Origin: Catajapyx aquilonaris
Lineage: Eukaryota
Length of the DNA stretch: 64,000 nucleotides
Direction: 5' to 3'
NCBI GenBank assembly: GCA_000934665.2
Contig: KZ538103.1
Coordinates: 1-64,000 of the forward strand
In this document: in pieces, positions 39,532 through 40,822 of the stretch
How the letters are laid out: every line of letters starts with the position of its first letter
Position numbering within the stretch: position 1 is the first letter of the stretch
Translations under genes and position numbers: made by a program
Notes under the pieces: model-generated
What the model was told of the DNA's origin: nothing
What the model saw: the letters and a program-made list of their open reading frames with translations, nothing else
Databases searched by the model: none

Positions 39532-40695
39532 CTACACGTCGAGGTGGATCAGCTGACGCAAGTCCATCGGTTCAAGTGTTCCAACTCCGAAGTCATCAGA
39601 GGAATCGTCCTGGTTTTTGGACGCATCATTCTCGATCTGTCATGCAAAGTTCTGTTACCTCAACTTATGTACATTTGCAAAGGTCAAGAATAGAGATTCA
39701 CCTCCAAGACATTGGAGTGTGGGGTGGCCACGCTTTGAGGTGCTGACGTAACAACGGGCGGATCCATCTGAACAGAATCATCCACGGTCAATCTGTTGTC
39801 AAAGAGAATGTTTATGGCATCGACTAAATTATTTTGTGAACGTATCAAAATGAGACCTTGAAAGGTTTACATGATACATAAGATTTCTGAAATGAAGATA
39901 GATGGAGTGAAAAAATCAGAAAAAATGTTCTTCGCTCTATATGTACTTTTGCGATAAGCTTTCATTCATCTGGGCCGATAAATTTGTCTTCGTTTTTCAG
40001 CTGCCTACTGTAACAACTGCTGGTGTCTTGACTCATTGTTTGGACAAAACGACACGGCCTGGTCAAATAGATAGAATCAAAGTGTAATGTGCGAGAAAAA
40101 TATGGGGATAAGAGTAAACGTCTTTGGAAGAACAAATCGACTTCTTCCTAAATTTATTAATATTGAATTAAAATTGCATTTTCAAAAGCTTATCTCCGTC
40201 ATTTGATACAACGCAATGAACCTCCCACAAAATTATTGTGATTTTCAACTGCCGATGTGGTCTATATGTTATTTCCTGGCACGACGCAAACCAGCCATCG
40301 TTGAAAGTGTGGGTAACACATACTCTATACTCACTGATTCGTATTGATATCTGCTTGATGGCAGGGTTGTCTGCAGTACGACATCAAAGTTTCGTTCGTG
40401 CATTCGTTGTGACAGCATTCGTCAACGATTCCCTGGGTGGTCGAACGCCGTTCTCTTGTTGGTCCAGCAGTAGTGTCGTAGCAGTCGTTTTCTGGGGACA
40501 TGTATACCATGGAAGAACTCAACTCCTGCTGCAAGACGTAAACTTCCGCTCCTTACCATGTCCGTTATACCCACGATCTCCACATGCATCTTTGAGTGCT
40601 TCGGTCAGCGCGTCTCCGCAAAGCCTACCACTCCCAGCGCTCACCTTCCATGCTGTCAGCGCCATCAGCACCACCAGGAAATGCCAGAGAGCCAT
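39532..40695 (-). CDS. IGF: Insulin/IGF-family precursor (arthropod IGF-like), 163 aa; CDS complement(join(40557..40695,40335..40491,39702..39792,39532..39636))
   Basis: Signal peptide MALWHFLVVLMALTAWKVSA; B domain RLCGDALTEALKDACGDRGY; phase-1 65-nt intron after B, the typical insulin-gene position; RERR; A domain GIVDECCHNECTNETLMSYC. Phase-2 and phase-0 introns add the tail LTVDDSVQMDPP...FGVGTLEPMDLRQLIHLDV*. Total 492 nt in frame. The core (first two coding exons) is more certain than the tail exons. Confidence 0.88.
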
Positions 40696-40822
40696 CTGCA
40701 TCAGCAAAATGTGCTCAAAAGTCAAATCAGATGTCCAGGAGCCAAAGAGAGGACACCACTTACCTTGGTTGACGGTTGGCGATCCAGAAGATCGGTTCGA
40801 CATTTGAAGGGCCTTTTTATAG
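40696..40822 (-). promoter_or_regulatory. TATA promoter, short non-coding exon 1 and 68-nt 5'-UTR intron of the IGF-like gene
   Basis: TATAAAAAGG at 40821-40812; donor AAG|GTAAGT (intron starts 40763); acceptor ATGCAG (40696) directly abuts the ATG. Confidence 0.7.

Follow-up and report, generated by a model that had tools for sequence, protein, structure and literature searches.

Genes for the insulin-like growth factor of arthropods (aIGF) have been described by Veenstra (2020; PMC7357564), and the parts of that paper and of its supplement 2 considered here provide the archetype with which we compared a gene in a 64,000-nucleotide stretch of DNA (contig KZ538103.1, positions 1 to 64,000; the whole stretch is referred to as the window). 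An archetypal aIGF gene has four coding exons, of which two additional ones, located behind a functional splice donor, code for its tail; when that donor is disregarded, a short insulin is predicted. The sequence connecting the B and A domains is very short. In the third exon, an arginine-rich part that carries two cysteines is subject to alternative splicing; this part is missing from the aIGFs of Gryllus, Diptera, and chelicerates and from the Daphnia row of the supplement. The last coding exon carries the motif GTVX1PX2(F/Y). In some species, the aIGF gene is found in a cluster with gonadulin and relaxin/dilp7 genes, and the genes of the cluster can be far apart. The four coding exons, the last-exon motif, and the clustering had been given as background in the original prediction, which proposed a hidden insulin-like growth factor (IGF) gene in the window, and all three traits are in print in PMC7357564.

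Outside the arthropods, ambulacrarian IGF genes were described as having three coding exons at most in the sections of Veenstra 2021 (PeerJ 9:e11799; PMC8286064) used here, and a phase-1 intron in the C domain was presented as a feature of the whole superfamily. In the same source, sea-cucumber and starfish IGFs contain the motif CGDRGY, and the Saccoglossus IGF contains the motifs NGRGYN and IVDECCH...TLESYC. The cysteine spacing of IGF and atirpin in cockroaches and termites is CC-x3-C (PMC10148640, in the part used here).

The gene in the window lies on the minus strand and encodes a precursor of 163 residues. Analysis of a public transcript contig confirmed that this gene is real, spliced, and transcribed and that the original prediction was right for all coding exons. 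It is likely that the gene is functional and encodes a secreted, IGF-type insulin-related peptide, most likely an aIGF or a paralogue derived from an aIGF. The exon layout, the IGF-like core, and the short connecting region supported the earlier suggestion that the gene is an aIGF orthologue or a divergent paralogue.

Exon structure and transcript of the gene

In the list of open reading frames (ORFs), the B-chain ORF (40519-40899, minus strand) and the A-chain ORF (40331-40552, minus strand; GIVDECCHNEC...SYC) are in different frames, which gives the listing the look of a frameshifted insulin. The two ORFs are linked by a GT..AG intron of 65 nt and phase 1. When the four coding exons listed in Table 1 were joined by scripted coordinates, the product was 492 nt long and contained an intact frame of 163 codons. 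The three coding introns (65, 542, and 65 nt, in phases 1, 2, and 0) all have GT..AG ends. The donor of the second intron, CA/GTGAGT, contains an in-frame TGA (40333-40331), and a ribosome reading through this donor would stop at codon 100, which yields a short form of 99 residues. A stop codon placed inside a splice donor in this way means that a naive reading of the locus yields a short insulin. Gene calls that are made automatically or from ORFs routinely overlook such small multi-exon hormone genes or cut them short.

The transcript evidence came from X1, the sole public run in which part of the stretch was present; its library type is not on record. One 457-nt contig of this run, with a depth of 7.3, matched the window with 0 mismatches and 0 gaps and aligned to positions 40492-40335, 39792-39702, and 39636-39440. 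The two joints in the contig omit exactly 542 and 65 bases, and the CT..AC ends seen on the plus strand correspond to GT..AG on the minus strand. At its 5' end, the contig carries an 11-nt overhang that, when reverse-complemented, equals positions 40568-40558, the end of coding exon 1. This 11-mer occurs a single time in the window, and an unspliced molecule would have different letters at the overhang. Because the overhang matches the end of coding exon 1 and the contig contains two further joints, all three coding junctions are supported. The contig stops 7 nt beyond an ATTAAA hexamer, and this end fits a polyadenylation site.

These results bear on most of the structural claims made earlier. 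The 11-nt overhang bore out the intron (40556-40492) proposed to join the B and A domains, and the contig joints and the scripted frame agreed with the two additional phase-compatible tail exons and the 163-residue precursor. Two outcomes had been named as tests of the prediction, namely, a lack of junction reads at 40557/40491 and transcripts that end at the TGA at 40331 without exons 3 and 4. The contig supports the junction, and it contains both tail exons. The proposed TATA box also exists as TATAAAAA; however, TATAAAAR occurs at 14 sites in the window, of which this is one, and it is only the location of the box that suggests a function. The putative intron in the 5' untranslated region (5' UTR) has consensus splice sites and, at 68 nt, resembles in length the two confirmed introns of 65 nt. 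The start of the 5'-UTR exon is a guess and was placed about 30 nt past the TATA box.

Table 1. Features of the insulin-related gene, with positions in the window
Feature	Position	Strand	Description
TATA-like box TATAAAAA	40821-40814	minus	About 120 nt upstream of the ATG
Putative short 5'-UTR exon	40764-40795	minus	From sequence only; end set by donor CAAG/GTAAGT at 40764/40763
Putative 5'-UTR intron	40696-40763	minus	68 nt; GTAAGT ... TGCAG, consensus sites; lies beyond the reach of the contig
Coding exon 1	40557-40695	minus	ATG at 40693-40695 after acceptor TGCAG; signal peptide and B domain, with Cys26 and Cys38
Intron 1	40492-40556	minus	65 nt, phase 1, within the C domain; junction backed by the 11-nt overhang
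Coding exon 2	40335-40491	minus	Rest of the C domain (Cys50, RERR), A domain, and start of the D domain (Cys90); covered entirely by the contig
Intron 2	39793-40334	minus	542 nt, phase 2; skipped by a contig joint of 542 bases
Coding exon 3	39702-39792	minus	First part of the tail; no Arg, no Cys; covered by the contig; no Pfam family
Intron 3	39637-39701	minus	65 nt, phase 0; skipped by a contig joint of 65 bases
Coding exon 4 (CDS part)	39532-39636	minus	Acidic tail with VGTLEPMD (GTLEPMD at 39582-39562); stop TAG at 39534-39532
3' UTR	39440-39531	minus	ATTAAA at 39452-39447; contig end at 39440

The predicted precursor begins with a hydrophobic leader, and the signal peptide occupies approximately codons 1-20 and ends in VSA. 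The B domain carries Cys26 and Cys38 (C-x11-C) and ends with CGDRGYN, and the A domain (GIVDECCHNEC..SYC) carries Cys72, Cys73, Cys77, and Cys86 (CC-x3-C-x8-C); the spacing of this core is canonical. The precursor contains eight cysteines in total, at residues 26, 38, 50, 72, 73, 77, 86, and 90. The extra pair consists of Cys50, which follows the second B cysteine by 11 residues and lies at the beginning of the C domain, and Cys90, which follows the last A cysteine by 3 residues and lies in the D domain. The sole basic site in the precursor is RERR at residues 59-62, and no basic site is present at the B/C boundary. The region that connects Cys38 and Cys72 is 33 residues long. Cys86 is followed by 77 residues that include 14 acidic residues (D+E), 3 basic residues (K+R), one cysteine, and no convertase site. 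A single N-x-S/T sequon (NET, codons 79-81; 40396-40388, minus strand) is found inside the A domain, between its third and fourth cysteines.

Family placement of the product

Coding exon 2 matched the Pfam family PF00049 (Insulin/IGF/Relaxin) with an E value of 8.6e-8 and a score of 33.5 bits, which is above the cut-off of 23. Coding exon 1 alone matched the insulin family at 17 bits (E value, 0.012), which is under the same cut-off, and the tail exons 3 and 4 had no Pfam match. The profile score above the cut-off, the six core cysteines, and the phase-1 intron in the C domain place the product in the insulin/IGF/relaxin superfamily. Among solved structures in the PDB, the A part best matched IGF-II (E value, 1.1e-4), DILP5 (2.1e-4), and IGF-I (8.6e-4), and the bombyxin A chain was also among the matches. 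The best matches of the B part were the human IGF-I precursor (E value, 0.0018) and preproinsulin (0.0019).

A representative library of 1.84 billion proteins gave four matches, one of which was a genuine insulin-like protein of 168 residues (E value, 3.3e-4) that was too distant to place the gene. The other three were repetitive proteins that had been aligned via low-complexity stretches, and they were discarded. Scores in the ESM Atlas were below 0.9 for coding exon 2 and below 0.8 for a neighbouring ORF; they were treated as leads only and were not used. A literature search with five peptide motifs of the gene found none of them. The string GIVDECC, which is the start of the human IGF-I A domain, appeared in nine papers that, judging by titles, mostly concern human IGF-I assays, as would be expected of this string.

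To place the gene within the superfamily, we used the aIGF rows in supplement 2 of Veenstra 2020, which cover 66 of the 70 places labelled aIGF; motifs were compared by eye. Like the archetype, the gene has four coding exons, a phase-1 intron in the C domain, and two tail exons that follow a donor with a stop hidden inside it. Its connecting region of 33 residues is close to the 27-28 residues counted in the Cimex, Bombus, and Halyomorpha rows, as opposed to the 72 residues of Blattella insulin-1. The pattern [DE]RGYN occurs six times in this supplement, always in aIGF rows, and reads DRGYN here. The A domain opens with GIVDECC(H), as it does in aIGFs. The last exon carries a motif of the (V/I)GT(V/I/L)xP type, which reads VGTLEP here. 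Insect rows have (V/I/F)GT(V/I)xP at this place, for example, VGTVSPLI in Bombyx, IGTINPSYF in Blattella, VGTISPYF in Cimex, and FGTVRPEF in Aedes, and the Oncopeltus row has such a motif too; the spider, scorpion, and Daphnia rows have different tail motifs. The resemblance to the GTVxPx(F/Y)-like motif named in the original prediction is partial: compared with GTVX1PX2(F/Y), the sequence GTLEPMD keeps the G, T, and P but has Leu for V and Asp for the closing F/Y. The Bombyx and Galleria aIGF rows likewise have no F/Y at that place.

In the core, the nearest rows by eye were those of heteropteran aIGFs, i.e., Cimex (XP_014260033.1), Halyomorpha (XP_024216518.1), and Oncopeltus. In the Cimex and Oncopeltus rows, the coding sequence (CDS) of the short form parts from that of the long form two bases into a codon, 9-16 residues beyond the last core cysteine, and this point of divergence implies a phase-2 boundary, as found here. 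We also noted that 28 bases encoding GIVDECCHN (40432-40405, minus strand) appear by eye to be identical in the CDS of the Cimex lectularius aIGF, a match that is too short to weigh as relatedness.

Several other members of the superfamily are similar to the product in some features and differ in others. Vertebrate IGF-I and IGF-II gave the best solved-structure matches to both halves, have the CGDRG(F/Y) and (G)IV(D/E)ECC motifs, and also have a short C domain and D and E extensions past the A domain. In contrast, the vertebrate E domain is basic and is removed by furin, whereas the tail here has no basic site; the exon layout is different, and vertebrate IGFs have six cysteines rather than eight. 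Ambulacrarian IGFs (Veenstra 2021) have CGDRGY/RGYN, IVDECCH, the phase-1 intron, and a terminal phase-0 intron in common with this gene, but their tails span hundreds of residues and are rich in Arg and Lys, and the tail here is short and acidic. Octinsulin, as far as it is presented in the sources used here, resembles the product in its GIVDECCH, its eight cysteines, its extra cysteines just after the second B and the last A cysteines, and its similar topology. Octinsulin differs in that it has KR sites, one coding intron, no long tail, and extra cysteines at LCDSC and YCC. The different cysteine places, the lack of a KR site, the three coding introns, and the 77-residue tail set the product apart from insulin-related peptides of the octinsulin or gonadulin type. 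The short IGF-related peptides of insects (bombyxin, DILP2/5) have the insulin fold in common with it, and they have long C peptides flanked by KR and no tail exons.

Eight cysteines have been reported in the superfamily before, in each case in other places than here. Among the 66 aIGF places that the supplement rows cover, none has a cysteine at the position of Cys50 or of Cys90. The extra pair of eight-cysteine aIGFs sits in the arginine-rich tail segment (Veenstra 2020 supplement). Decapod gonadulin 1 and some androgenins also have eight cysteines (bioRxiv 10.1101/2020.03.19.998484, in the part used here), and both extra cysteines of decapod gonadulin 1 are in the connecting peptide, unlike the pair here. 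One mantis peptide, Tenodera sirp 3, has eight cysteines in other positions (PMC11874938, likewise in part).

If the product is an IGF-type hormone, its expression and maturation would be expected to proceed as follows. Transcription would start behind the TATA box, and the 68-nt intron in the 5' UTR would be removed. Removal of the three GT..AG coding introns from the pre-mRNA gives the 163-codon frame, and this step is seen in the contig. The second donor overlaps the in-frame TGA, and splicing at this donor would decide between the long precursor and the short one. The signal peptide would be cut near residue 20, and the six canonical cysteines would form the insulin fold. The simplest reading of the extra cysteines is that Cys50 and Cys90 probably form a fourth bridge. 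A furin-type convertase might split the product into two chains at the RERR site, or the site might be left uncut, as in IGFs; the acidic tail would stay attached. By analogy with insect IGFs, the hormone would then signal through an insulin/IGF receptor tyrosine kinase in growth or nutrition.

Alternative explanations for the gene

Several findings weigh against an aIGF as described above. The transcript is documented by a single contig from a single run of unrecorded library type. The arginine-rich, two-cysteine segment is missing: exon 3, when read past its donor, stops after 6 codons, and neither the ORFs listed for the locus nor the donor read-through revealed an alternative arginine-rich exon. 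The tail motif departs from the consensus at the two positions given above, and the tail as a whole is acidic, while most insect aIGF tails are basic. Large protein libraries contained no close relative, and a search of longer proteins with coding exon 2 gave two candidates, neither of which was scored. Motif scans and Pfam detected no gonadulin or dilp7/relaxin-like gene in the window. Finally, the core motifs are also present in hemichordate and echinoderm IGFs and do not fix the phylum, so the core indicates an IGF type, and an aIGF is indicated by the tail motif and the layout of the exons alone.

The extra cysteines and the tail can be combined into a more specific proposal, namely, that the product represents an undescribed, four-disulfide IGF subtype in which a Cys50-Cys90 bridge staples the C loop to the D domain and the acidic tail is kept on the hormone. 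We regard this proposal as tentative. If it is true, the staple would lie beside the receptor-binding C terminus of the B chain and would alter how the ligand opens on the receptor, and the subtype could represent an IGF lineage of its own within a group of arthropods that has been poorly sampled.

The unusual cysteine pair, the missing arginine-rich part, and the solitary position of the gene in 64 kb could also mean that this is a lineage-specific paralogue that arose by a non-local IGF duplication, with the true aIGF orthologue located elsewhere, beside gonadulin and dilp7. Short IGF-related peptides have been proposed to stem from non-local IGF duplications of this kind (PMC10148640, in the part used here). 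We consider such a duplicate somewhat unlikely because the full layout of four coding exons and the last-exon motif are kept, and derived short peptides lack both. In addition, the arginine-rich part is not a constant feature of aIGFs, as its absence from the Gryllus, Daphnia, and chelicerate rows indicates. The solitary position is also of limited weight: the cluster is known for some species only, the distances between its genes can be large, and a window of 64 kb therefore leaves room for a looser gonadulin/dilp7 cluster. A different possibility is that the gene is an IGF gene of a non-arthropod bilaterian, which would make aIGF the wrong label. In line with this explanation, the IGF or octinsulin rows of sea cucumbers, starfish, and Saccoglossus contain CGDRGY and IVDECCH. 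Yet the (V/I)GT(V/I)xP tail motif is described for insect aIGFs only in the parts of the sources used here, the ambulacrarian genes have longer, Arg/Lys-rich tails and fewer coding exons, and all four named relatives of the neighbouring ORFs are insect proteins. A non-arthropod origin therefore seemed quite unlikely to us.

Other explanations question the long form or the gene itself. The RERR directly ahead of the A domain might serve as a convertase site, retention of intron 2 leads to an immediate stop and a precursor of 99 residues, and the long form is documented by one contig only; each of these points would fit a short, two-chain neuroendocrine insulin-like peptide whose tail exons belong to a minor or non-functional splice form. 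We judged this to be very unlikely. The sole transcript seen is the spliced long form that ends at the poly(A) signal, a basic site at the B/C boundary is lacking, and the connecting region has the length seen in aIGFs and not that of Blattella insulin-1. The Cimex and Centruroides aIGF rows have basic sites ahead of the A domain as well. We considered it extremely improbable that the locus represents a pseudogene, an artefact due to a retrocopy, or ORFs arranged by chance: the frame is intact over four exons with canonical splice sites, the Pfam match is significant, and the contig, which shows 100% identity to the exons, ends behind a poly(A) signal. Given the unrecorded library type, it is formally possible that the spliced contig is a processed DNA copy.

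An aIGF, or a paralogue derived from one, remained our preferred reading of the gene. In this case, the arthropod-type family gains one IGF gene that is extended at the C terminus and supported by a transcript; this kind of gene has already been described, and no new kind of system is involved. The gene departs from the archetype in that its extra pair of cysteines has a new position, its tail is acidic and lacks the arginine-rich part, and its locus is solitary. These departures bear on the evolution of IGF tails and of the proposed IGF/gonadulin/dilp7 gene triplet, and the locus should be of use in annotation and, with regard to IGF tails, in comparative endocrinology.

Surroundings of the gene in the window

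The original prediction had reported no second insulin-family gene in the regions flanking this one, and motif scans and Pfam extended the statement to the window as a whole. The A-chain cysteine pattern in its strict form had two matches in six frames, i.e., this gene and positions 57482-57435, which are not insulin-like; in shuffled sequences, 19 of 20 gave no match and 1 of 20 gave one. A looser cysteine pattern had 6 matches, compared to a mean of 0.87 in 30 shuffles. One of these is the gene itself, three are antisense to a threonine-rich repeat at 2747-2863 and are spurious, and the matches at 57482-57432 and 59715-59662 (minus strand) are not insulin-like, as they have no Pfam insulin match.

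The description of the gene as standing alone in a gene desert was also upheld, as it lies in about 43 kb with no recognisable neighbour, although genes with short exons would escape these checks. No repeats of at least 60 nt were found in the region from 21 to 64 kb, and Rfam gave 0 matches in the window at gathering thresholds. Among the 149 stop-to-stop ORFs of at least 85 residues, four had convincing Pfam families, all of them C2H2 zinc fingers located at 11.8-20.8 kb. A match to DUF6302 on the strand opposite the gene (E value, 0.0067, below the cut-off of that family) was taken as chance. The four named relatives of the neighbouring ORFs, all insect proteins, are weak matches at 24-37% identity; they point weakly to an arthropod host, which we regard as likely.

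The zinc-finger ORFs are located at 11851-12351 (plus strand) and at 15175-15648, 16068-17288, and 19493-20755 (minus strand). The three on the minus strand have the acidic N-terminal motif EE(S/T)W..(I/M)KQE.P(S/D)L in common, and neither ZAD nor any other Pfam N-terminal domain was detected in the zinc-finger ORFs. Three of their eight matches were named, and these zinc-finger proteins, with 24-30% identity, come from a beetle, a wasp, and a fly. The remaining named relative is the sole match of the ORF at 7655-8230 (minus strand), which has no Pfam family and resembles the central portion (residues 630-779) of a 1285-residue wasp protein with an Ulp1 domain (37% identity over half of the query; in tblastn, 27% over 196 residues with an E value of 1.8e-16). 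No Ulp1 protease domain was detected in the window. The ORF at 1946-3160 (minus strand, 405 codons) encodes a threonine-rich, mucin-like repeat (TTTKPTTTT...) with no Pfam family, and its antisense frame is the source of the spurious cysteine-rich patterns mentioned above. A run of 35 N at 56309-56343 marks an assembly gap.

The window is also divided in its base composition. The ratio of observed to expected CpG was 0.46-0.61 in the gene-bearing part (1-24000) versus 0.68-0.88 in the gene-poor part (24001-64000), which holds the hormone gene. This difference suggests mosaic methylation of the gene-body type and fits an invertebrate.

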